Source: Amoebophrya sp. A120 (Eukaryota > Protista > Dinoflagellata). From it: 17,130 bases of DNA. Numbering within the stretch: the stretch's first letter is position 1; the number at the start of each line of letters is the position of its first letter. This document shows, piece by piece, positions 1 to 17,130 of the stretch. A model generated the notes under the pieces. It was not told where the DNA came from. It was given only the letters and a program-made list of their open reading frames with translations, and made no database searches. The stretch spans positions 360,934 through 378,063 of the forward strand of contig CAJINV010000025.1 of assembly GCA_905178155.1 (NCBI GenBank), written 5' to 3'. The translations under genes and the position numbers were made by a program.

Positions 1-2
1 GC

Positions 3-308
3 TGTGGCTTTTTGACGATGTTGGAAAAGGCTGATAGTGACAACGAGTCCTCGCCGTCGCCGGCGTCACCAACTACAACGCCAGCCGCACCTGCTGGACG
101 AGCAAGCAGCCCCGTTCTGGCTCGGCGGTCGATGCCCTTGAGCGACGTGCTGCGGCGAGTCAAGAGGGCCCGAGAAAGTAGTGCAGGCGGCGCCGCAACT
201 ACATTTCTGCAGCGGCGGGGGGGGGGCAGCAGCAGCAGCACCAGCAGCGGCTCGACCACCAGCGAACACAACTACTATGACACAAGCCTCGACTGCGGCA
301 GATTTTGA
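3..308 (+). CDS. 3' end of a gene entering from upstream; Ser/Pro/Gly/Thr-rich low-complexity C-terminus, function unknown
   Basis: Frame is open from base 3 to TGA 306-308. It is GC-rich and composition drops after the stop. The TTG start in the ORF track is probably not a real start. Confidence 0.55.
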   Translation, partial: CGFLTMLEKADSDNESSPSPASPTTTPAAPAGRASSPVLARRSMPLSDVLRRVKRARESSAGGAATTFLQRRGGGSSSSTSSGSTTSEHNYYDTSLDCGRF

Positions 309-1670: not shown

Positions 1671-2148
1671 GTGGTATTTCGATTCCATCTACCCGAAATA
1701 AAGCAAACCGATCCAATAGAAGGAATTTCTTTCTGTTATCGATTGCAAATATGTCTGGGGCTGGAAATTTGTGTTGTTGAAGCTTTCGCGAGTCTGGGTC
1801 CGTCTGGAAATTTGTGTTGTCAGAGTTCTTGTAGACACTTCCTACATAATTGTCATGACATCAGAACTTTTGCGAAATTCGCAAAGAAGGCACTTACTGC
1901 AGATTCAGGCGTAATAAAATGCACGACAAAGAAGGGCGACAAGGTGCTCTTGCTCAACCTCAATCGCATTCATGCATTACAGATCTTGTTGCCCTTCCAA
2001 TAGTTCGCATGACAAATAACCCAGCCCCAGACTACATATTTGCCAACATGCATACCCGGTTGCTTTCCTGAACTTCACTGTCGTGGTACTTACTTCGATT
2101 CCATCTATCCGAAGAATCTAAACCGATCCAATAGGAATTTCTACCTGT
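1671..2148 (+). repeat. ~65-bp imperfect direct repeat pair (1671-1736 and 2083-2148)
   Basis: Both copies read gtggta..ttcgattccatcta.ccgaa..a....aaaccgatccaatag..ggaatttct..ctgt. Confidence 0.8.
1737..2054. mobile_element. Degenerate family A TAT...ATA element
   Basis: Left end tatcgattgcaaatatgtctggggctggaa; right end ccagccccagactacatatttgcc...gcata. Flanks tctgt/cccgg do not match. Confidence 0.7.
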
Positions 2149-2444: not shown

Positions 2445-4871
2445 ATGGATACGTCTCGTCGTGGATTGCCCTGTTGGGCGATTGCCGTGCTGGTCGCGGT
2501 AGGGGGAGCTGTCCAAAGCGAGGGAGTGACATGGCGGAGGAGCTGCGGAGAGACGAGGGAGGAACTGCGTCCGCAGGAGCGGGAGGAACTGCGTCCGCAG
2601 GTATCCTGTGCAAAAGTACTATCCGATACTCGTAGAAATGCATTACAAATTTCCTCAGCGTGAGAAATGAAATTTGTAATGCCGATTCACCTTAAGGAAA
2701 AGCAAAAGATGTGCAATGCATGATTACAATACGAGTACGATGCTTTTGCATTGCATAGCAGGGGGGATGGACCGATGTCGACGACGTCTTCCGCTGCAGT
2801 GCGGAGTATGAAATGCAGAAATGTCTCCGTCTGGAAGATTGCTAGGCTTGTGATGCACGTTCTGCATGAGCCATGATCGATCTGTGATGCATGCCCTAGC
2901 ATCACAGATTAGATTTTTTGAGAGCATCTTGATGCGCCAGCCTATTCCGCATGACACATGCACTCTCCGCGTAGCAAAATTCACACTCCCTTTGCTGCCC
3001 ATGCAGTACTACAGATTTCGTTGGAAAAATCCAAATGCAGCGTCACAAGTTGCATTCCCATTCTCCCAGACCCAGATATATTTGCAGTCGATACGCAGGA
3101 CTACGAAGCGATGGCGCAAACCTGGGTTCCAGGCCTCCAGGCAGAACCTGCTGCTGGCTCAAGAACAGTTGGAGGCCTGTTGTCTACTTCCGCGAATTAT
3201 ATTGATAGAGCGGTGCGTCCGGTGCACATTTTCTTCGAAACGTTTGGAAAAACCACCCTGACAGGCGCATATAACTTGATGAAGCAGCTGGCAAAAACGC
3301 CGCACGTTAAAGTCACCTTTGTTGGCCCGGTGGGAAAGTTGATACAGAAAAAGGATCCGGCGACCGGCGAGCGGGTGATTGTGTATGCGGATCAGCTGCT
3401 ACCTGTATTAAATGTAAATATCGATCTGGGTCTAGAAGAATGCCAGGTTTGTCATGCATATTTTGCATATACCCGTGATGCCTGCAATGCAGGACCTAGC
3501 ATCACAGATTCTTAAAGGGCCTTCTTATGCGTGGTCCGCATGAGAAATGCCCACTCCGCGTAGCACAAACTGAACTACTCTTGCTGGTCATGCAATACAG
3601 ATGTTTTTCGCTTCCGAAGACAGCATCACAAGCTGCAACCTTCCAGACATCCAGGGATTTTTGCATTTGATAACCCGCGGCGAGCAACGACGTGAAAGGA
3701 GATCTATCCTGAGTAAAAACGTACCCGCACCAGAGTTGTAAGGCAGATTTGCAAAGACAGGAAGTCTTGTAATGCGCATCCCCATGAGAGCCATTTCCAA
3801 TCGTGTCTTGGAATTTGTGATGCTGTGAACAGGATGAGCAGATGAATCTGTGATGCGGCTGCACTTGCTAACCTGCACTACACTGCATAGTGCAACTTGT
3901 CACGCGTGACTCACAAAACTCCTAGGCTTGTGTTGCAAAATCCTCATCCTGACTCTGGTGTGGGTACGCTTTTACTCAGGATAAGATCTTCCAGATCCCG
4001 CCCTTGAGGGAGACAAGACCTATATGAATTGTGAAAGTGTCTGGGTCTGCAAACTTGTGAATGTGATGCTAAAATGTGCAACCAAGATGAAAACAGTTCC
4101 GAATGGAATGTAGCATGACAACTTTCCAGCACGCTTTCTCATAGGCAATCCGCATGAGAGACTCACTGCGTGTTTGCAGGTACAAAAGAGGCTGCGCCTC
4201 TTGGTGGTTGTGCAATACAGATTTCCTAGGTATAATGAAAAGCTAGCACTACAAGTTCCAACCTTTCAGACCCAGACATATTTTTTGCAATCGATAACCT
4301 ATCTTGCGAAACAACTGAGAAAGTACGATCGGCTGCAGCACAACGGGACGGTCTGGACGGAGAGGAAGTCGGAGAATGTTACTGTTCTTTGGGACTTTGC
4401 TGTCTCCGAAAGCGAGATGAAGAGCCTCGGCGCGGCCGGAGTGGAGTTCGTGCCCTGCCGCCCCCGAAGATACTTTTGGAGTGTGAAAAGCAACACCGCG
4501 GTGCGACAGATGTTGCCGCGTTTGTTTTTGACGGACGGGGGGGAAAATCCGGAGGGCTCTACTTGGGTTATCAAATGCAAATATGTCTGGGTCTGGAAGA
4601 TTGCCAGGTTTGTCATGCATATGTTACATGACCCATGACGATGAAGATGATGCTTCTAATGCATGACCTAGCATCGCAGATTTTCATTTTTAGAGGGCTT
4701 CCTGATGCTTATTCCGCGCAAACTGGACCCCTCTTGTTGGTCATGTAATGCAGATTTTTTTAGAATGCAGCAACAGCATCACAAGTTCCAACCGGCCTCC
4801 AGACCCAGACACTTTTGCATTTGATATCAGTTTTCCGCGAACAAGACAACCGAGACTGGCCGCGCCAGTTT
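2445..4871 (+). CDS. Split gene for an unknown, probably secreted or membrane-targeted protein; segments 2445-2601, 2763-2806, 3099-3405, 3678-3704, 3989-4022, 4302-4568, 4832-4871 (876 nt, 292 codons, no stop yet)
   Basis: Manual removal of six elements plus one 5-bp repeat each gives MDTSRRGLPCWAIAVLVAVGGAVQSEG...EELRPQ/GGWTDVDDVFRCSAE/DYEAMAQTW...ADQLLP/AASNDVKGD/LPDPALEGDKT/YLAKQLRKY...PEGSTW/VFREQDNRDWPRQF with no stop. The N-terminus is hydrophobic. Confidence 0.8.
2557..2601 (+). repeat. In-frame 24-bp tandem duplication (REELRPQE/REELRPQ)
   Basis: gggaggaactgcgtccgcagg occurs at 2557 and 2581. Confidence 0.9.
2602..2757. mobile_element. Family D short TAT...ATA element / putative introner (156 bp)
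   Basis: tatcctgtgcaaaagta...gatgcttttgcattgcata with perfect flanking gcagg/gcagg. Homologous to 11431-11581 and 11635-12000. Confidence 0.88.
2807..3093. mobile_element. Family A element / putative introner (287 bp)
   Basis: tatgaaatgcagaaatgtctccgtctggaaga...ctcccagacccagatatatttgcagtcgata; flanks cggag/cgcag (4/5). Confidence 0.88.
3406..3672. mobile_element. Family A element / putative introner (267 bp)
   Basis: tattaaatgtaaata...ctgggtctagaaga to ttccagacatccagggatttttgcatttgata; flanks acctg/acccg (4/5). Confidence 0.88.
3705..3983. mobile_element. Family B element / putative introner (279 bp)
   Basis: TIR tatcctgagtaaaaacgtacccgcaccagag / ctctggtgtgggtacgcttttactcaggata; perfect agatc/agatc. 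Confidence 0.92.
4023..4296. mobile_element. Family A element / putative introner (274 bp)
   Basis: tatgaattgtgaaagtgtctgggtctg...cagacccagacatattttttgcaatcgata; perfect accta/accta. Confidence 0.9.
4569..4826. mobile_element. Family A element / putative introner (258 bp)
   Basis: tatcaaatgcaaatatgtctgggtctggaaga...tccagacccagacacttttgcatttgata; flanks tgggt/tcagt (3/5). Confidence 0.9.
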
Positions 4872-4997
4872 TATGCATTGCAAACATGTCTGGGTCTGGA
4901 AGATGTCATGCTGCTTCTGCATGACACAGAAGGTCTGGCATGGAAGCCCTAGCATCACAGATCTCGAGAAGGTTTTGCAATCCGCCTAATCCGCGAC
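4872..4997. mobile_element. Truncated family A element (left part only)
   Basis: tatgcattgcaaacatgtctgggtctggaaga plus the internal ctagcatcacagat block; no right TIR found. Confidence 0.75.
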
Positions 4998-5521
4998 AGA
5001 AGAAAAAAATGTGTATAATTTTCGTTTGTTAAAGAGTTTATAATTCTACCACTACTCAGGGAGGTGGGGTAGGCTTAATGGGGTAAATTCAGGCTCTCCA
5101 CCAATGTTGCCCGAATCGGATAGAACACAGACGAGGTCCGCTTCAAAGTTCGACTTTCATTTGTTGAGATACCCAAAAGACTGCTCATATGAGACGACTC
5201 AGTCCGGAGACTACACATCAGGCATTCACAACGAAGTCGGTCGTGTCGGTCCTGTCGTACTTCCACAGCCACCGTAGGAGCGAAACTGTGGAGAAGAAAG
5301 GCTCGCATTAGTAAGCTGGTTCTTGTCTTCGTTCGAGTCGGTGATCATATTATGGTTTAATTGGTGTGGCTCAGCTGTGGTGTATATATAGTTTTGAGCA
5401 GGATTTATTGCAACATTAACGCTTTATCGGTTTCAATTTTTGTCCGAATCTATTTTCAGAATTCGGGCACTTGAATTTGTTAGCGCCATCGGTTAATACT
5501 ATTTGATATCAGACCTGTTCT

Positions 5522-5760
5522 GGTTCTGTAACATGGATGAAGAAGCGAATTTTGCAGTTTTGCCCTGCCGCAGCATCTCGGTTAATATTTCAAAGACGTT
5601 CGGTTCGTGTGGAACTACAGTGTAAATCGGTGTGGTTATTTCAAAGATAAGACGTTCTGGTTCTGTTCGTGTGGACCTACAGTGTAAATCGGTCGCGCGT
5701 ATGGTGCAAAATTTTCTGTATTCTGTCCGAATTATCGTGCAACTTCTGCTTTTAACCTAC
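5522..5760 (+). repeat. Dispersed repeat R1, copy 2 (partial, with internal duplication)
   Basis: Matches 1213-1350 and 7101-7281; tatttcaaaga...ttcgtgtgga.ctacagtgtaaatcggt occurs twice. Confidence 0.85.
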
Positions 5761-6606
5761 TGGCTCGACTGGATAGCGCAGCGCTGGTTCCCGGTATCAT
5801 TTGGAAAAACTTCCCCACCCCATAGTCAAGTAGATGAATCTTGCAACACAAATCTCCAAGTTTTAGGAGCTGCGCATGACAAATTTCCCTCTGCAGTGTA
5901 GTGCTGATTGGCAAGAGAAGCTGCATGAGAAAGCCACTTTCGCATCCTTTTTACAGCATTACAGATTCCAAAACACGAGTGGAAATGCCTCTCATGCAGC
6001 TGCGCATTACAAATGTTGCTGTCATTGCACATTTGCATGACAACTTTGGTGTGGGGACGGCGTTTTTACTCAGGATACCCGGCAGCCGTGTTTCGCAGTC
6101 CGTTCTACTGCGTGTTTCCGAACACGGTGTCACATATTTTGGCCAAAGTGGATATGGGAGTGTCAGGATTGAAATCGTCAAAGTTGAAATAGTTTGTCAT
6201 GCATAAATTGGATGCCGGTTGGAACCCAGGTTCCAAGTAGCGCATGACAGATTCGGGCGTTGCCTAGATCCAGTTTGTAATGCTGCTTAGGCAAAGAGAA
6301 CCGATTTTCTCATGCTACTTTAGCAGCTCCAGCTCTAACCCGAAACAGGCTTACAATCGGCCTCACTTGCCTGCTCTGCAACACACGTCTGTGGCGTCAT
6401 GCATTTTATGCATTAAAAGTTATTCCAACTTTGTCCATTTCGATCCTGACACTCCCAAAGTGGAGGGCTTGCGGTTGGCGAAGCAGGAGGACTATTTGTT
6501 TCTCTTCTACCGAGATTATTGGGTGAACTCTCCAGTTCGGTTTGTTTGTTTCAGAGCAGACGGAGAAAAAGGCTGTAGCAGGGGCGATTTCATCTTCATC
6601 CTGTGA
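5755..6606 (+). CDS. 3' part of a split gene; segments ~5755-5794, 6083-6152, 6465-6606; possibly the end of the 2445-4871 gene
   Basis: Removing two elements plus one repeat each gives TYWLDWIAQRWFP/AAVFRSPFYCVFPNTVSHILAKV/EGLRLAKQEDYLFLFYRDYWVNSPVRFVCFRADGEKGCSRGDFIFIL-TGA. The 5' boundary is uncertain because it abuts R1. Confidence 0.7.
5795..6077. mobile_element. Family B element (283 bp), opposite orientation to 3705-3983
   Basis: Ends tatcatttggaaaaacttccccacc / ggtgtggggacggcgtttttactcaggata. The interior is the reverse-complement homologue of 3780-3950. Perfect cccgg/cccgg. Confidence 0.9.
6153..6459. mobile_element. Family C element (307 bp)
   Basis: TIR tatgggagtgtcaggattgaaatcgtcaaagttgaaata / tattccaactttgtccatttcgatcctgacactcccaaa (terminal ATA reads AAA); perfect gtgga/gtgga. 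Confidence 0.9.
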
Positions 6607-7630: not shown

Positions 7631-8790
7631 AGACAACAAAACTAAGTACTCAAAGAAACACGAAGCGGAAGCGGTGAAGAGAAACACGCATAAGAGAAGC
7701 GGAATCGTGCGTTCCTGCAGCCCACAACAAGTATGAGATGGACTGAGCGATTCAAAATCAACGGATTCAAAAATTTTCTTTCATGTTCCAAGCTTTTCCT
7801 GACTCTTGAAAAGAACAGCAGCAAGGATGGGCTGTGTTCTGGGTGATTTTTTGCGTTCGCCGAAACGTCGCCCAGAAGAGTATCAAGCGAACAAGCTAGG
7901 TCGATCTCAACTTGACTTCGTGACTTAGGCGTACGTGAACGCAGAAAAACCGGGAAGGGGAACAAGGCGAGTGTCTGCATTCATAAACGTGAAGAATTCG
8001 CAGAAGCAAGGGGCAACAGAGTAGGCTACACAGCGGATACCCTCGAAGCCCAAGCCTGCCACTATTTGGCCCCAAGGCGCTTTTTTTGTTGGCATTTTTT
8101 GTTGCATTTTTTTGTTGGCATAGTAGCCCGCGCGGCCTCCGTGGACCTGGTCGAGGCTGCCGCAGGTTTACAACCTTTACGCGAGCAGGCCCAAAGGCAT
8201 TCCCACCACGGCGCACCAGAAGCCGCCGGCCATGCCCGGCGGTCGGCCCGCTTGGGTTTTGGAATGGGCCTTGGGTTGCCCTTCACATGGCTGACGCGCG
8301 TTTTTCCCGGGACACAACTTGGCGGCACTGTTGCGTCTTGTTTTTCCGATCATTTCAAGGCTTCATGCGCACGCGCTGACTTCATCCCCTACTTTGCAGC
8401 CTGTAAGTATAAAATGGCAAGTAGTTGCCTCAAGTTGAGACCGGCCACGTTGGCCTCTTTCGTAGTCTTCGGCCTACATATTTTACTTCCATAACCCGGC
8501 GCCGACATCTCCGCCACTTACCTGAAACTGCTCCGCGCGACGCCGAATCCGGGGACGTTTTGGAGGAGTTGATGGGATGCGTTTTAGTTGAAAAAAAATT
8601 TTTGAATCGCTTGGGTTTGAATCGCTCAGTCCATCTCATAACAAGGTACCTAATTCATTCCCAATCTAGACAACAAACACGAAGCGGAAGCGGTGAAGAG
8701 AAACACGCAATTCCTGCGGTGAACGAAGAGAAACACGTGCGCTCCGGCCGCCCACAAGGTACCTACTTGATTCCCAATCTAGGCATTGCA
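7631..8790 (+). repeat. Tandem pair of a ~110-130 bp unit (7631-7731+8646-8667 and 8668-8782); the first copy is split by the 909-bp element
   Basis: Both read agacaacaaa...acacgaagcggaagcggtgaagagaaacacgca...gcccaca..aggtaccta....attcccaatctag. Pieces recur at 10452-10474 and 12613-12634. Confidence 0.75.
7732..8640. mobile_element. Long family G TAT...ATA element (909 bp), non-autonomous
   Basis: tatgagatggactgagcgattcaaa / tttgaatcgctcagtccatctcata is a perfect 25-bp TIR extending imperfectly to ~55 bp; perfect acaag/acaag. Confidence 0.92.
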
Positions 8791-10444
8791 TTTTTCCAGA
8801 CATCTCATGCTAGGCATCACAGATGATAGCTAGGACTAGGTCGCGCAGCACCAGCGCGAACCTCGTGAGCGCCAGAATGGGTTACTAACCACCTCTGTGG
8901 CCCCATTTTTGTTCTCCCGTGGCCAGCCCTTGCCTACAAAAATGGACGACACCGGGGGAGCACAGGAGACGCGCAGCCAATGCCCACGCCGATGTCGGTG
9001 CGCAATCAATCTGGAGAGGGAGGCGAAGATGGCGCGCGCATGCTAGAGAAGCACGCACTATCAAAGGAGCAACTAAATCACTTCACATCTGAATCATAGG
9101 GCCAAAAAAAAAAATTTTTGAGTATTAATATAGCTTAGCATGAAGAAATGACTTCAGTTGTATGCACATGATGACGATGCGAATATGCCACCAGAATGGC
9201 AGTTTTGAAGGCTCAAATGAAGAGCTTTGATTTTGAACTAGATAGTTGATAGCTGCAGGACGATCTAGATAAGTAGCTAGCTGAAGATCATGGTTTATTT
9301 GATGAAAAAACAAAGAATATTAGAAGGATTTCGCCTTGTGGCTTCCGGCCGGCAGCCTCTCGCCAAGCTGGAGCGAGGAGCTGCTACGCCTCCAATGTGG
9401 AGAGCTGCTGGGAGACATAAACCGCCAATGAGCCGAAGAGCTGGCACTCCGTGACGAAGCAGCCCAACGGATTCGGAGCTGGTACTCCGTGACGAAGCAG
9501 GCCAACGGATTCGCCCGAATCCGTTGGGCTGCTTCGTCACGGAGTTCCAGCCCTCCGGCAGAAGAAGCACACATTCTTCCCCGCAGAGCTCCACGTTGGC
9601 GACGTCCCAGCTCCTCCAGCCTGGCGGGAGGCTGCCTGCCGGAAGCCACCAGGCGAAATCCCTTTACTTTTCTTTGTTTTTTCATTAAATAAACCATGAT
9701 CTTCAGCTACTTATTTAACTAGATCTTCCTGCAGCTATCAACTACCTAGTTTAATTAAGAAGCTCAACAGCAGAGCCTTCTTCTGCCGTACCTGGTTTGC
9801 ATTCTGCATCATATCAACGCAATCATTCATAAGTGAAAGCCACATGATTTGTTACTTGAAATACATTAAAAAAATTTTTTTTTTGGCCCTATGATTCAGA
9901 TGTGAAGTGATTCATTTGCTCCTTTGATAGCACGCGCGGCTTGTTTACTCATCTTGACGCGAATATATATAATTTAGCGAGCTCGTGGCCCCTCTCTCCG
10001 GCGACGCAGTGGCCCGCCACTGCCCGCTAGCGACCTCTGTTGGGGAGGGTTCGGGACTTGTTGCAGCCTCTGTTGCGCCCGGCGCTGCGACCTCTCGGCG
10101 CAGTGCTGGAGCACGGTTCGACCCACGTCTGTGGGCGGACAAGTGCGACGCCCGCAGCCACCTCTGTGGCGCGGACGTCGCGGCGCGGTCCCTGCTGCAC
10201 GCCTCGCTACTGTATCTAGTAGCACAAAAGACGCTGCGAAGCAGCGCAGATACACTTTATACAGAGCCGGAGTTGTTCCACCACTGTGAAGGGTGTCGTG
10301 GCCTTTTGTTGAGAACATACGGACTAGAGCAGCGGCCCCATGCGGCCGCAGAACTGCGGGGATTTGGGAAGTAGTTTGTGTTCGCCTCACGATGATCACC
10401 AAGATGCTACCCAAGTCACATCATGGATCAGGTACCAACAGGGC
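8750..10444 (+). repeat. Segmental duplicate 1 (paralogous to 13487-16384), interrupted by the palindromic element
   Basis: 8831-9058 matches 13552-13830 and 9950-10444 matches 15829-16384 (e.g. ttgcagcctctgttgc.cccggcgctgcgacctctc). Confidence 0.85.
9059..9929. mobile_element. 871-bp foldback (fully palindromic) element with TAT...ATA ends and probable 8-bp target duplication
   Basis: tatcaaaggagcaa..aatcacttcacatctgaatcatagggccaaaa matches the reverse complement at the right end, and the arms pair inward to an axis at 9514-9515. Flanks gcacgcac/gcacgcgc. Confidence 0.92.
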
Positions 10445-10479
10445 GGAAGCCGAAGCGGTGAAGAGAAACACGCATTACG

Positions 10480-10741
10480 TATCAAATGTAAAAATGTCTG
10501 GGTCTGGAAGATTCTAAACCTGTAATGCTGTCTCTGGATTCTAAAAAATTTGTATTGCATGACCAGCAAAAGGACTCCAGTTTGTGCTACGTGAAGAGGG
10601 CATTTCTCATGCGGTAGAGGCACCACAAAGTCCTCTGAAAATCTGTGATGCTAGGGCATGCATCACAGACATCATCGGCCATTCAAAATATGCATGACAA
10701 ACCTGGCAATCTTCCAGACCCAGACACTTTTGCAATGGATA
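10480..10741. mobile_element. Family A element (262 bp), left unit of a composite; opposite orientation to 3406-3672
   Basis: tatcaaatgtaaaaatgtctgggtctggaaga...tcttccagacccagacacttttgcaatggata; own flanks ttacg/ggtgg do not match. Confidence 0.92.
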
Positions 10742-10800
10742 GGTGGGCGCGACCTGCCACCCGGTGGGGCGGGAGGAATTCGACGTGCCTCCACCAGCAC

Positions 10801-11062
10801 TATCAAGTGTAAAAGTGTCTGGGTCTGGAAGATTGCAACTTGTCATGCTAAATCTGAAGCATGCAAAAATTTGTTTTGCATGAGTGCCAAAAGCTGTCCG
10901 CTTTTGACCAAGTTGAGAGGGAGTTTCTCATGCAGGAAAGGCATGATAGAGCCCTCAAAGAATCTGTCATGCTGGGTCTCGCATTCCAGACCTCATGAGT
11001 CATGGAAAACCTGCATCACAAATCTTGTATTTTTCCAGACCCAGACATTTTTACATTTGATA
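10801..11062. mobile_element. Family A (subtype A2) element (262 bp), right unit of a composite
   Basis: tatcaagtgtaaaagtgtctgggtctggaaga...ttccagacccagacatttttacatttgata; own flanks agcac/ttacg. Close inverted homologue of 16385-16646. Confidence 0.92.
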
Positions 11063-11096
11063 TTACGAATACCAAAACGAAAACCGAACTTCAAGA

Positions 11097-11403
11097 TATC
11101 AAAGTGAAAAAAGCCCCCACCCCATATTCAAAAGACGATTTGTGTTGGTGGATTCGTGTACTACGCAAATGAGCTTTGTAATTGCAGCAAGAGCTTGTCT
11201 GCATATAATTCTATAGCCCATTTGGGTGCTGCGCGCCCGGCTAGCAGCTGAGCATGTGAAACAAGGCTGACATATTAGGCGAAAACGCATGACAGACTCG
11301 CTGAACAATGCGCCACAAGGGTTCCGCTTGCCTTGTACGCAAGACAAAGCATCGCAAATTTTCCTCTCGATGTGGGGACGGGGGTGGATTTTTCCTTACG
11401 ATA
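11097..11403. mobile_element. B-related TAT...ATA element (307 bp)
   Basis: tatcaaagtgaaaaaagcccccacccca / ggggacgggggtggatttttccttacgata. The left end resembles 5795-5825; flanks caaga/cgcga (3/5). Confidence 0.72.
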
Positions 11404-11430
11404 CGCGACTCGCTTTCTCCGCGGCCTGCA

Positions 11431-11581
11431 TATGAACTGCAAAAGTATCGTATAAATGCATGACAAATTCCCTCAGCATGAGATTGAGCAATTAAAATTT
11501 GTAAGTATATGCGTATGTGACTTAACAAAAAGATTTGTAATGCATGACTGCAATACGAGTACGATACTTTTGCACAGGATT
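11431..11581. mobile_element. Family D element (~150 bp), right end eroded
   Basis: tatgaactgcaaaagtatcgta...tacgagtacgatacttttgcacaggat; same orientation as 2602-2757. Confidence 0.82.
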
Positions 11582-11634
11582 GCTTTCTATAGTTAGAACT
11601 CCGCGCCAGCTCCTTCACGACGATCGAACTGTCC

Positions 11635-12000
11635 TATCCTGTGCAAAAGTATCGGATTCGTATTGCAGTCATGCATTACAACAAATCTTTTTGTTAAGGT
11701 AAATCAGCATTGCAAATCAGTCAGGGTAGAGGAGCAATCCTCGGGCACATAGATAACAAAACGCTGCACATCTGAAAGAGTTTTTTTGAAAGAAGAAAAG
11801 AACAGACGTGCACCATCAGAAGTGTAGTGCTGGCGGTAGCACTTGTGCTGCACCATCAGAAGTGCGTAACTCGCATGCCGGGCGTGCCATGTCAGGATGT
11901 CAGGATAACGCAGAAGCTCAGTCAGTCAGTCAGCATTGCAAATTTTATCTCTCATGCTGAGAAATGCACTTATACGAGTACGATACTTGTGTAGTTCATA
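11635..12000. mobile_element. Family D element, inverted, containing a nested insertion
   Basis: tatcctgtgcaaaagtatcg...cgatacttgtgtagttcata; perfect tgtcc/tgtcc. Confidence 0.88.
11718..11929 (+). mobile_element. Probable non-LTR retroelement fragment (SINE or 5'-truncated LINE)
   Basis: The insert is absent from the other D copies, is flanked by a 14-bp direct repeat tcagcattgcaaat (11704-11717, 11930-11943), and ends in (TCAG)n. Confidence 0.6.
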
Positions 12001-12022
12001 TGTCCGGCGGGAAAATATCGAT

Positions 12023-12676
12023 ATGAGAGTGCATAAAAACAACTCGATCTCCACGTACTACCCAGCTGCAGCCGCCCGGGACGAGAGTGCGGCTCTACTG
12101 CTGAGCGCGGAAGATAACGCAGTGGGACAGCACGTTGAACAGGAGACGGAAAATGTTGAAAAAACCCCCGCCCACGGGGGCTGTTGCCAAGACTGCTGCA
12201 CGAAAAAGTGCGTGCTCATCCTTCTCCTCATATTTCTCGTCCTCGCAGGCGGTGCTTGCGTTTTAATTTTCGTTCCCTGGTTCGACGTATCAAATGTAAA
12301 AATGTCTGGGTCTGGAAGGATGCGAACTTGTGATGCTGTCTTCGGATTCTAAAAAAATCTGTATTGCATGACAAGCAATTATAGGGCTCCAGTTTGTGCT
12401 TCGCGGGAGGGCATTTGTCATGCGGAATAGGCATGATCAGGAGGGCCTCTAAAGCTCTGTGATGCTAGGTCATGCATTCCAGACCTCATAGGTCATGGGA
12501 AACCTGCATCACAAGTCTTGCAACCTTCAAGACCCAGACATATTTGCAATCCATACGACGGTTGGAGTGAATCTTTGTACACGAGATGGAGAGGAGGTGC
12601 GACGTTCCTGTCGCCCACAAGGTACCTAATTCATTCTCATATTCTAAGCATAACGCACTCCAGATCGGTCACATAA
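12023..12676 (+). CDS. Putative single-pass membrane protein, split (12023-12287, 12561-12676); may be a fragment and may extend upstream
   Basis: MRVHKNN...GGCCQDCCTKKCVLILLLIFLVLAGGACVLIFVPWFD/GWSESLYTRWRGGATFLSP...VT-TAA has a Cys cluster followed by a hydrophobic helix. The last ~20 codons lie in a dispersed repeat. Confidence 0.55.
12288..12555. mobile_element. Family A element / putative introner (268 bp), opposite orientation to those in 2445-4871
   Basis: tatcaaatgtaaaaatgtctgggtctggaagg...ccttcaagacccagacatatttgcaatccata; perfect cgacg/cgacg. Confidence 0.93.
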
Positions 12677-13487: not shown

Positions 13488-16384
13488 ATTCATTCTCATA
13501 TTCTAAGCATAACGCACTCCAGATCGATCACATTCTAGGCATGATCACAAATAGGACTACTAGGTCCTCGCGCAGCACCTCCAGCGCGAACCTCGTGAGC
13601 AGGGCCGGAATTTTTATGGGCCAACCACCTCTGTGGAAGGAAGGACCCCACTTTTGTTCTCCCGTGGCGGCGGTGGCCAGAATTAGAATTTATGCCTACA
13701 AAAATGAAAATAAATGGAGGACAGCGGGGGAGCGCAGCAGACACACAGCCAATGCCTACGCCGATGGCGGTGCGCGAACTGGTAGGAGGGAGGCGAAGAT
13801 GACGCTCGCATGCTCTCGTAAGAGAAGCGTTCGCGGCTTGATGTTGGTCACCCTTTTTTATGTTCACACACGACTCGCAAGGCACATCCTGACGTCTATG
13901 GCTCATTTGGAGTCGCGTTTCAAACTTTCACACGCAGAGCGCGGCGATTCGCAAGTTTAGCCGAACCGGCGTAGCGATTTTGTGTCTGGTTTTCTGACAT
14001 TGTGTGCCCATCACAGAATTCGTGTGATAGGCACGCAACACTTTGAGGGGGCCAGAAATAAAACTGCCGCGCCACTTCGGCTGTACTTGCGACCTTTGGT
14101 GCCTTGCGCGTGACAGTTCGATCCGCGTGTCCAAGCGAGGTGACTGTCGACGTAACACGCAAAGCCTGGGAACGAATTTCTGTGAGTCACCTGAATAAAA
14201 TTGGTGCTCAGATCGGTTTTGCTGGTCAGGGCACAAATCTTACGCAGGCAGCCTACAGAAATTAGGTCTCAGGACCCCACATCCGAGAACTTGTCGGATG
14301 GGACTTCACATCCGAGGAACTCCCGGACGTGAACTCACATCCAAGAATTCCTCGTGTGTCAGCTCACATCCGAGAACTTCTCGGCTGTGCGCAGACATCC
14401 CAGGAGTTAGTATTTGATGTGGCGAAAATCCTTGCGAACAAATTGCTGGAAGTCACCTGCGTAAGATTTGTGGTCCGATCGGCAATACCTATTGGAGCAC
14501 AACCCCTACGCAGGTGAGTTACGGATATTAGCTCTCAGGATTTCCGCCGCATCACGAAATTCTTGACGCAGCGAAGATCCTGGGAAATAATTTCTGTAAG
14601 CCACCTGCGTAAGATTTGTCTTCTCACTGGTAATACCGATCTGGGCACAAATCTTATGCAGGTGACTTACAGAAATTACTTCCCAGGATTGGATCATCAG
14701 TGTGTCCAAGTGTGGCGACTGGAGACGCAGTACGCAAATCCCAGAAGTGCATTTCTTTGGGGCACGAAAGCCGAAGTTGTAGGAGCGCGAGTTCTGCTCT
14801 GCTCTTAGGTAAAGAAAACTCGCGCAGCGCTTTTTCCTCCTGGCCTTCTAGAAGTGTGCTTCTGAACACATCTGCAGAGCGATCTGCTTTTTCTTCTAGG
14901 GAGAAGACGCAGCCTCTGCTAGAAGAAGAAGCAGCTTCTTCTAGAAGCTGCGTTTTCTAGAAGAAAAAAAGTCTGCGTCTTCTACAGGAAGACCAGCCTT
15001 CTAGAAGAAGACAAAACTTCGCGCCTTCTTCTAGAAAAAGACGCAGCTTCTTCTAGAACAAGAAGCTGCGTTTTCTTTTAGGAACTCAGTTTCTAGAAGA
15101 AAACTTCCGGAAAAAGTGTTCGGACAGGGGGTTTGCAAAGGGGTCTTCAAAGGGGTGGTCGCGCAAAGTGCCTTAGTCACGACCTAACAAAGGGTCAACG
15201 AAAGGGGTCAACGAAAGGCTCTCTCGGAAGGGGGTTTCCGCGAGACCTTTTCTGAAAGAAGTCAAGAAGACTTCTTTTAGAGTCTGAAAGAAATCCAGCG
15301 GATTTCTTTTAGACTCTCAAAGGATTTCTTCTAGAGTCTCAAGGTGCCTCAGAGGCACCTTGAGATTCTAGAAGAAATCCTGGGAACTCATTTCTGTAAG
15401 TCCGTTGCGTAGGATTTGCACTCAGGTCGGGATTACCGGTCGAAACGCAGATCCTACGCAACCTACTTACAGAAATGAGTTCCCAGGATCCCACATCCGA
15501 GAATTCCTCGGATGTCAGCTCACATCCGAAGGGTTCGCGGAAGTGAGCTGCAGGAGAACTTTCGCGCGCAAAGTGCCGAACTTTGGCGCCCTGCTTGTGA
15601 AAGTTCGATCCGCGTGTCCAAATGCGGCGATGTAGAAAAAACACGGGAATTCTGGGAGCTAATTCCTGGAAGTCGCGTGCGTAGGGTGTGTAGTCAGACC
15701 GGGACTACCGGTCGAAACGCAGAGCCCGCACACCTGCTTCAAAATTTTTGAAAGCCGAAGCTTTTCGGAACTGCTCTGAGAACTAATTTCTGAAAGCTCT
15801 GATATGTTCACACACGACTCGCAAGGCACATCCTGACGTGTATGGCGCGAATATGTAGAATCCAGGGGCTCGCAGCCCCTTCTTCCGGCGACGTAGTGGC
15901 CGAGCGAGCTTTGCGAGGGCGCACGCCCCTCGTAGCGAAGCGAGCCGTCACTACTTACCCGCTAGCGACCTCTGCTGTTCTTGCAGCCTCTGTTGCACCC
16001 GGCGCTGCGACCTCTCGTCGCAGTGCTGGAGCATGCCTCGACCCAAGTGGTCTATGGGCGGACAAGAGCTGCGACGCGCGCAGCGGACGTCGCGGCGCGG
16101 TCCCTGCTGCGCGCCTCGCTGCTATGTATCTAGTAGTGCAAAAGACGCTGCGAAGGAGCGCAGATTATACACCTTTACTTCATACAGAGCCCCCGGAGTT
16201 CCACCACTCTGAAGGGTGTAACCTTTTGAGAACATACGAACTAAACAAGCTGCCAGCCCGTCAAGGGGCGCCAGCGCTCTGCTGGGGATAGATTTGGGGA
16301 GAATTTTGTGCTCGCGCCACGATCATATAGGTAGCAAACCCTCGTACCCAAATTACATCATGGATCTTCAGGTACCAACAGGGC
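13487..16384 (+). repeat. Segmental duplicate 2 (13487-13902 and 15803-16384), interrupted by a 1.9-kb insert
   Basis: 13487-13600 also matches 12628-12711+12968-13003; otherwise see 8750-10444. Confidence 0.82.
13903..15802. repeat. 1.9-kb non-coding insert of repeated hairpin units, ~30-bp tcacatcc repeats and a TTCTAGAA-rich tract, bounded by a 44-bp direct repeat
   Basis: tatgttcacacacgactcgcaaggcacatcctgacgt(c/g)tatggc at 13859-13902 and 15803-15846. Hairpins at 14165-14273, 14430-14539, 14577-14689, 15377-15489 and 15651-15745. Confidence 0.82.
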
Positions 16385-16648: not shown

Positions 16649-17130
16649 GACGTGGCCGGGCCATTAAACGGCGGGGGCGATGATCGAACAAGTTCGGATC
16701 TTGGAGGCGATCAAGCCCAAGTTCGCTTCCATAGATCGGATCTATGGAAGCGTCAGGTTTGAAATCGTCAAAGTTGAAATAATTTGTAATGCATAAAATG
16801 CATGGCCCGAGGCACGTGCGTTGCAGAGCAGGCAAGTGAGGCCGATTGTCCGCCTGTTTGGGGTTCCAGCTCGAGCTGCTAAAGTAGCATGAGAAAATCG
16901 CTCGTCTTTGCCTAAACAGCGTGACAAACTAGATGTAGGGACCACCGAAATTTGTCATGCGCCACTTAGAAACTGGGTTCCAACTGGCATCCATTTTATG
17001 CATGACAAATTATTTCAACTTTGTCGATTTCAACTCTGACACATCCATACGATGGGGGTGGTGGCGATCAGGGTGGTGGCGATGGCGATGGTGGTGGCTT
17101 CTCTCCACAGGAGCCTCCTGATGAACCTGA
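16649..17130 (+). CDS. Partial split CDS, Gly/Asp-rich; segments ~16649-16742 and 17055->17130
   Basis: The joined frame DVAGPLNGGGDDRTSSDLGGDQAQVRFHRSD/(R or G)GGGDQGGGDGDGGGFSPQEPPDEP is open, with GGD motifs on both sides of the element. Confidence 0.6.
16743..17049. mobile_element. Family C element (307 bp), inverted relative to 6153-6459
   Basis: tatggaagcgtcaggtttgaaatcgtcaaagttgaaata / tatttcaactttgtcgatttcaactctgacacatccata; flanks ggatc/cgatg (3/5). Confidence 0.9.

Follow-up and report, generated by a model that had tools for sequence, protein, structure and literature searches.

Six introner-type insertions in an Amoebophrya sp. A120 gene: probable removal from the transcript and a candidate fixed splicing register

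The window analysed here is a stretch of 17,130 nucleotides from Amoebophrya sp. A120 (assembly GCA_905178155.1, contig CAJINV010000025.1, positions 360,934 to 378,063, forward strand), in which a gene is interrupted by six inserted elements that begin with TAT, end with ATA and are flanked by short direct repeats. The locus raises the question of how one protein is obtained from a gene with six inserts, five of which lack GT-AG ends at the register proposed below. An earlier note, made from the letters alone, had proposed that exact removal of the elements restores a hidden frame of 292 codons, and had pointed to the non-canonical introns of Amoebophrya. This is found to be a real feature, accurately read, in a known system and an annotated gene, and thus a rediscovery from raw sequence: the window encodes the A120 protein CAD7973906.1, and because the joined frame equals this public protein, the inserts belong to the introner elements that Farhat et al. 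described in 2021, so that both the elements and the gene model are already known. The six inserts are likely old DNA transposon copies of the miniature inverted-repeat transposable element (MITE) type. The new detail is that a single offset, in which the intron starts 1 nt before TAT and ends 4 nt after ATA (-1/+4), fits all 15 listed junctions, together with an apparent exon capture by two elements. The best explanation of the whole, to which a probability of about 0.62 is given, is that introner elements are spliced by a relaxed spliceosome of the host, which cuts at a set distance from the paired inverted ends.

Six elements and the transcript-like contig that lacks them

A scan for TAT…ATA pairs with flanking 5-mers recovers the six elements in the places described in the earlier note, all six starting with TAT and ending with ATA, and with the same removed lengths (element plus one 5-bp repeat), five of which are not multiples of 3. 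The four short segments between elements measure 44, 27, 34 and 40 nt, in agreement with the range of 27-44 nt given before. Seven of 13 listed sequencing runs (labelled X1 to X13) were compared with the window; those left out are X12 and X13 (raw RNA, same species label), X2, X5, X6 and X8. Intron borders and terminal dinucleotides are given below at the register proposed in the next section (k = 4, where k is the count of repeat bases kept from the left copy of the 5-bp repeat).

1736-2058, plus strand: upstream introner intron (element 1737-2054); flanks TCTGT/CCCGG limit the cut to k = 3 or 4
2445-2600, plus strand: coding exon 1, with the ATG, a hydrophobic signal-peptide-like stretch and a short tandem repeat; contig pieces 2123-2596 with 0 other letters
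2601-2761, plus strand: intron 1 (element 2602-2757), GT..AG; joint 2596>2758, skip 161, in X1, X3 and X7
2762-2805, plus strand: exon 2, 44 nt
2806-3097, plus strand: intron 2 (element 2807-3093), GT..CA; joint 2804>3097, skip 292
3098-3404, plus strand: exon 3, 307 nt; similarity to UDP-glycosyltransferase-like paralogs begins here
3405-3676, plus strand: intron 3 (element 3406-3672), GT..CC; joint 3404>3677, skip 272
3677-3703, plus strand: exon 4, 27 nt
3704-3987, plus strand: intron 4 (element 3705-3983), CT..AT; joint 3699>3984, skip 284
3988-4021, plus strand: exon 5, 34 nt
4022-4300, plus strand: intron 5 (element 4023-4296), AT..CT; joint 4017>4297, skip 279
4301-4567, plus strand: exon 6, 267 nt
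4568-4830, plus strand: intron 6 (element 4569-4826), TT..AG; joint 4566>4830, skip 263
4831-4952, plus strand: last coding exon, stop TAG at 4950-4952; contigs continue unspliced to at least 5789 (X3 records 5 and 6)
4872-4964, plus strand: seventh element, family A, truncated, with the left inverted end only; kept in the transcript

The 5-bp boundary repeats are present at all six elements, as had been described, but they are perfect in only three: GCAGG (element 1), AGATC (element 4) and ACCTA (element 5). The others are CGGAG/CGCAG (element 2, 4 of 5 positions), ACCTG/ACCCG (element 3, 4 of 5) and TGGGT/TCAGT (element 6, 3 of 5). Between the two ends of each element, 10-14 of the first 15 positions are complementary, and among the 15 spliced elements of the window AAA is found at positions 11-13 of 11 left ends and 11 right ends; TAT itself was used to place the left ends, and the right-hand ATA was not imposed. 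The interior alignments fit the three families recognized before, namely element 1, which groups with 11431-11581, elements 2, 3, 5 and 6 (family A; elements 2, 3 and 6 are in forward orientation, and element 5 is family A-like) and element 4 (family B), which groups with 5795-6077. Relatives inside the window have an interior identity of 65-82%. The families are repeated in the genome, with 13,388 contigs of X4 matching the window, stacked on the elements. No Pfam match at the cut-off is obtained for eight open reading frames of the window, including the one inside a 909-nt element.

In each of X1 (depth 170) and X3 (depth 198), one contig of 1274 nt is found without any of the six elements, and its long pieces (exons 1, 3, 6 and 7) have 0 other letters when compared with the window. 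All six joints are listed on this contig in X3 and four in X1, where the record coordinates account for the other two. Both runs fit RNA, because depth is absent in 6 of the 30 window bins in X3, and because in X1 it is 8 in element 2 and 1.5 in element 5, compared with 170 on the exons. A minor unspliced contig of X3 (1706-2087, depth 6 versus 177) is as expected of pre-mRNA. When joined at k = 4, the frame is 100% identical to P0001, which is CAD7973906.1 (gene GSA120T00023851001, 318 residues), so the six-intron model is already annotated, and the database search with the joined protein that had been proposed as a check returns the identical A120 protein. What decides the case is the contig across all six joins, together with this identical protein; the open frame by itself gives modest to moderate evidence, because 72 of 729 combinations of acceptor shifts (-1, 0 or +1) also stay open to 4871. 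The frame is a single one, as claimed, and its length is 318 rather than 292 codons, as it continues past 4871 for 26 codons into the seventh element, to the TAG at 4950-4952. Read-through of the elements, which had been called impossible, is rejected, as keeping any single element truncates the product, to 72, 79, 205, 180, 219 or 301 residues (elements 1-6).

Removal of the elements at the RNA level, mostly without GT-AG ends as previously stated, is very probable. Weighing against this are the assignment of X1, X3 and X7 to RNA, which is a guess combined with the coverage pattern, none of the three being on record as RNA; the nature of the element-free evidence, which consists entirely of assembled contigs that give the majority form only; and the presence of two of the joins at single-copy depth, 4017>4297 (30.9) and 4566>4830 (32.4), in X4. 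The latter run is DNA-like, with an even depth of 25-37 on unique stretches and up to 647,608 in element bins, and its contigs total 106 million letters, compared with a genome of 115.5 Mb.

These two joins are what a precise excision from DNA would predict, as for the internal eliminated sequences (IESs) of ciliates, the element-free contigs then representing either the excised DNA itself or RNA transcribed from it, and the paralog fragment P0003 begins exactly at the boundary of element 5. The earlier note had named this alternative and had suggested looking for element-free genomic sequence; such sequence is present in X4 for elements 5 and 6, but X4 has no joins for elements 1 and 2, where it has the form with the elements in place (2732-2873, depth 37, 0 other letters). 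The X4 contig that carries the join of element 6 has 2 differences, and X4 also contains, at about half the depth, a second sequence type whose amino acid changes P135A, T217S and L219I (and T206K in X7) are those of the A120 proteins CAD7950986 and CAD7950984, encoded on a different, longer scaffold; the X4 and X7 variants match the close paralog fragments P0002 and P0003. Judging from these sequences, the X4 joins are best read, and most simply, as a paralog without elements 5 and 6, although the start of P0003 exactly at the element-5 boundary cuts against this, and that copy could also carry element 5. Metagenome or environmental DNA contigs cross the boundaries of element 5 (X9, 4180-4328) and element 6 (X10, 4493-4696) unspliced. 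Because element-bearing DNA exists, and in view of the pre-mRNA-like contig of X3, excision from DNA is unlikely and as an alternative is left mostly unsupported. The least probable explanation is that the joins are artefacts of template switching by reverse transcriptase. Hairpins with short direct repeats are a known source of such false introns (PMC4176328), and all the evidence here comes from cDNA-derived contigs. However, the joints 10799>11067 and 11429>11586, in a second gene of the window, share no base and have the same register, which makes switching unlikely; furthermore, the joined form dominates by the X1 depths given above, the joined protein aligns with the paralog P0004 across junctions 3-6, and in the second gene, too, the six joins leave a single frame open, 181 codons long, the other five containing stops. 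Run X11 (raw RNA reads, labelled with the same species) gives 90 reads, nearly all at the element end 4569-4602 and with 90-95% identity; a related inverted end therefore exists in what is apparently a different strain, and this run is without information on the present gene.

The proposed cut register and its candidate mechanism

The register rests on the 15 listed joints among the 22 of the window. Each of the 15 removes an element starting with TAT plus 5 nt, and 14 of these elements end with ATA. A cut at k = 4 fits all 15 joints, compared with 11 for k = 3 and 11 for k = 5. The six joints with perfect repeats carry no information on k; the other nine do, the allowed values of k being 3-4 at 1734, 3-5 at element 2, 4-5 at element 3, 3-6 at element 6, 4-5 at 10478, 3-5 at 11094 and 1-4 at 16738, and exactly 4 at 10799 and 11429. 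The chance that k = 4 fits all is P = 8.6e-5 under a uniform register, and 5e-4 for any shared register, this being a crude null. The expectation that junctions fall inside each 5-bp repeat agrees with these contig joints. The register is independent of mismatches in the flanking repeats and of the orientation of the element, family A being spliced in both (elements 2, 3 and 6 versus 10480, 10801 and 12288). The intron profile is N-TAT…ATA-NNNN, in which +1 (G6/C4/A3/T2 among the 15) and the last four bases (G5/C4/T4/A2 at -1) are free, and GT-AG is found at this register in one of the six introns of the gene (intron 1) and in one of the 15 of the window. An A at -7, present at 15 of 15 junctions, is a candidate branch adenosine. 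For elements 2 and 6, a reading with GT-AG ends was rejected, as it would excise one base more than the joints show, and a drift of the intronic repeat bases towards AG is not clear, -2 and -1 remaining mixed.

A fixed register is considered probable. Counting the other way, the test covers 15 of the 22 joints; the four informative joints of this transcript alone give k = 4 with a chance of 0.028, or 0.17 for any register, which is weak; and the contigs behind eight of the 15 listed joints have depths of 796-1038, with differing letters on those of depth 796 and 886, so that these joints may come from sister copies. That the register is one code for the seemingly rule-less introns of A120, whatever their family, orientation, terminal dinucleotides or repeat match, with the element pair acting as a self-removing bracket, is somewhat favoured. 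If true, the fixed offset would reduce tens of thousands of ambiguous junctions to one rule, would show why insertions do no harm to the reading frame, would name the bases to mutate and would point to A-7 as the branch candidate.

In the proposed mechanism, the insertion would have created a 5-bp target duplication, abcde-TAT…ATA-abcde, and the two inverted ends would pair and bring the exons together, with the paired or protein-bound ends setting the cut positions. The cut would keep abcd of the left copy and e of the right copy, such that a fresh insertion would restore the original message exactly, for any target sequence or orientation. The element would supply U+2, A+3 and U+4 of the 5' splice site, like the canonical GUA(C) starts in the window. 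The candidate catalyst is the cell's own relaxed spliceosome, which appears rather likely, given RNA-level removal at a fixed register, because U+2 and A+3 are placed as in canonical introns, because element 1 is GT-AG, and because A120 keeps nearly all spliceosome proteins and the U2, U4, U5 and U6 small nuclear RNAs, U1 being not detected (PMC7789003). The predicted folds of the six elements have z values of -4.3 to -8.4 (25 shuffles each), and pairing of the terminal UAU/AUA is predicted in 11 of 14 folded elements, although a strong hairpin is no proof of function, because it is expected of any MITE. All nine 'predominant' non-canonical A120 motifs of Table S4 have T at position 2, as predicted by the register (PMC7789003). 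Less easily accommodated are the three folds (1737, 11431 and 11635) in which the terminal bases are not predicted to pair, yet the elements are spliced, and the GC-AG (1%), GA-AG (1.5%) and GG-AG (0.8%) introns given for A120 in the same table (PMC7789003).

The same removal at the RNA level, with the same register, might instead be carried out by a dedicated structure-guided nuclease and ligase, or by another separate machine, rather than by a U2-type spliceosome. To our knowledge, no such dedicated nuclease or ligase is known in A120, which counts against it, as do the placement of U+2 and A+3 and the GT-AG ends of element 1 at the same register. The same repeat anatomy is moreover found in 15% of the canonical introns of A120 (PMC7789003). 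What a separate machine would explain is the lack of a conserved G+1 or terminal AG among the 15 junctions, the independence of orientation and the failure to detect U1 (PMC7789003). There are also precedents, as Euglena uses a paired motif at set spacers, 5'-N3CDG…CHGN5-6|R (PMC12501133), its excised introns are circular and not lariats (PMC11282704), and a separate splicing machine is suspected there (PMC12501133) and left open in diplonemids (PMC12621601). On balance a separate machine is less likely, though it is a real competitor of the spliceosome as the catalyst.

The host gene, its paralogs and the rest of the window

The host gene is probably a copy of a UDP-glycosyltransferase-like gene that has lost its 3' part but is expressed. 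By its alignments it looks like the front third of such a gene, broken off by the seventh element. Residues 103-294 of P0001 align with the A120 paralog P0004 (815 residues) with 35% identity, and residues 102-245 with P0005. The C-terminal parts of P0004 and P0005 pass the cut-off of the UDP-glycosyltransferase family PF00201, and P0004 has weak matches to two solved glycosyltransferases (E 0.004 and 0.009). A truncated duplicate is likely because the similarity to P0004 ends where the seventh element begins and the remainder, including the PF00201 region, is without a match in the window. The seventh element matches positions 1-103 of a 268-nt family-A element and supplies the final 26 codons and the stop; no right end is found in 4900-5790 (best score 16 of 70), and the lone left end at 4872 is read through, not removed, in X1 and X3.

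P0001 has no Pfam match. Against 1.84 billion representatives it gives six hits, five of which are A120 proteins; a full-length search among proteins of 174-557 residues returns only P0001 itself, exon 3 has one match among the longer sequences, again P0001, and a metagenome scan confirmed none of 124 candidate stretches. P0007 was set aside as a relative, as it matches only the element-derived tail, and a single-sequence AlphaFold model was discarded (mean predicted local distance difference test score 35). A contig of 1978 nt in X7, with 7 differences in exon 6, extends about 1.6 kb beyond exon 6 and is probably the full-length parent copy of this gene.

It had been proposed that the gene stayed under selection, and the 318-residue product could be a functional secreted protein kept in this way instead of a truncated duplicate. 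The frame is intact, the depth in the RNA-like runs is 170-198, and the N-terminus has the signal-peptide-like character noted before, as suggested by a Kyte-Doolittle peak (11 residues) of 2.7 at residue 13. Compared with the near-identical second copy in exons 3 and 6, four of the eight differences among the listed rows are synonymous and four non-synonymous (two exon-1 variants on a more diverged contig being left out of this count), which leans towards constraint, but with P = 0.11 against a rough neutral ratio of 1:3, and it may be the other copy that is constrained. The open frame is no sign of selection, because precise default splicing keeps it open without selection. With the similarity to P0004 stopping at residue 294, at the start of the broken seventh element, and with the paralogs' PF00201 region unmatched in the window, a functional secreted protein is doubtful, and selection on this gene is not borne out.

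At its 5' side the transcript likely includes the intron 1736-2058 in its untranslated part; the joint 1734>2058 is found in X3 (depth 177) and in X7 record 10, with 0 other letters, and continues to 2473. Downstream of the stop lies a family-B element, 5795-6077, inverted relative to element 4 and with a perfect CCCGG repeat, which is probably spliced too, because X3 record 6 exits the window at 5789 with 75 letters left that equal 6078-6152. Elsewhere in the window, the following features were observed.

1-308, plus strand: end of an upstream frame rich in Ser, Thr and Ala, with 101 open codons counted from position 1 of the window; X7 coverage of 1-141
7732-8640: 909-nt TAT…ATA element, flanked by a perfect ACAAG repeat and likewise skipped (joint 7725>8640, X3 depth 1038); no Pfam match at the cut-off for the 192-codon frame inside it
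9059-9929: 871-nt, largely palindromic TAT…ATA element, flanks CGCAC / GCACG with no direct 5-bp match; X3 depth absent in the central bin
10431-12620, plus strand: second gene; once six elements are removed, a single frame of 181 codons is open, which includes a hydrophobic segment
10475-11067: two family-A elements (10480-10741 and 10801-11062) with a common outer repeat TTACG/TTACG and mismatched inner flanks
14158-15730: nested repeats of about 115 nt, both direct and inverted, with 29-nt and TTCTAGAA-rich short repeats, of a different repeat type; almost no X3 or X7 depth

The second gene is placed on the plus strand because its joined sequence is open in one plus frame only and is flanked by GT-AG ends; its frame has no similarity to P0005. 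Its contigs carry a few differing letters and may come from sister copies. Short units like those of this gene recur near 7640-7730, 8670-8760, 12600 and 16370, with GT-AG ends, which suggests a tandem array whose long introns are packed with nested elements. The pair at 10480-11062 is spliced as two separate elements, with an in-frame exon of 54 nt (10746-10799) retained between them, and looks like a compound element that carried the exon in. If any pair of element ends is a self-removing bracket, two elements can bring the intervening DNA into a gene, where it becomes a new exon, and such a route, if true, might be relevant to the rapid protein evolution that has been reported for genes containing these introns.

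Comparison with known systems

The A120 introner elements are described as having inverted repeats of 8-20 nt that start with TAT, with a motif of TAT, seven loose bases and AAA, direct repeats of 3-5 nt and 29,850 repeated introns (PMC7789003), in 58 families according to Gozashti et al. 2025 (PMC12130899). The elements of this window are from the same organism and likewise have TAT + 7 nt + AAA ends, 5-bp direct repeats, a length of about 150-370 nt (one of 909 nt), a hairpin and non-GT-AG ends (PMC7789003), and the agreement extends to all the properties compared: organism, inverted ends, direct repeats, motif, families and absence from the RNA-like contigs with five of six introns non-canonical. 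The difference concerns the splice position relative to the hairpin, which is called variable or unknown in the legend of Fig. 3 (PMC7789003), whereas one offset is seen here in 15 of 15 junctions. The legend of Fig. S23 gives a range of 1-5 nt, and the mode of that figure may show -1/+4 (PMC7789003). Among the 22 of 58 A120 family rows available, fam160 has exactly -1/+4 with a 5-bp duplication, and others differ, with mixed mechanism calls (PMC12130899). A review leaves the mechanism of introner splicing open (PMC11282704). The literature search, which covered sources outside the subscription journals, found no statement of a -1/+4 rule; the available parts of PMC11453091 and PMC12787238 gave nothing on a splicing register, and that of the preprint of Roy et al. 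no mention of Amoebophrya.

The nonconventional introns of Euglena (Nomura et al. 2025, PMC12501133) also have paired motifs at set spacers, no GT-AG and a likely MITE origin. Their signature, N3CDG…CHGN5-6|R, is not found here, the A120 form being N1-TAT…ATA-N4; the Euglena purine rule at the exon start is not seen in the A120 junctions, and the inverted ends of A120 are much longer. The introners of Fritillaria borealis and of Micromonas and Aureococcus are also transposon copies with terminal inverted repeats and target duplications that are removed as introns, and the duplication partly provides their splice sites, but they keep set dinucleotides (AG-AC/AG-AT, or GY-AG), whereas +1 and the last four bases are free in A120 (PMC11282704). 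Compared with UDP-glycosyltransferases (GT-B fold, PF00201), P0001 aligns with paralogs that pass PF00201 and is without the C-terminal PF00201 region. The introns of the gene differ from U2-type spliceosomal introns in the rarity of GT-AG ends at k = 4 described above. The IESs of ciliates are short transposon-derived inserts in coding sequence that are precisely removed from DNA, at TA ends; in A120, by contrast, DNA that carries the elements is still present, and the 5-bp repeats can have any sequence.

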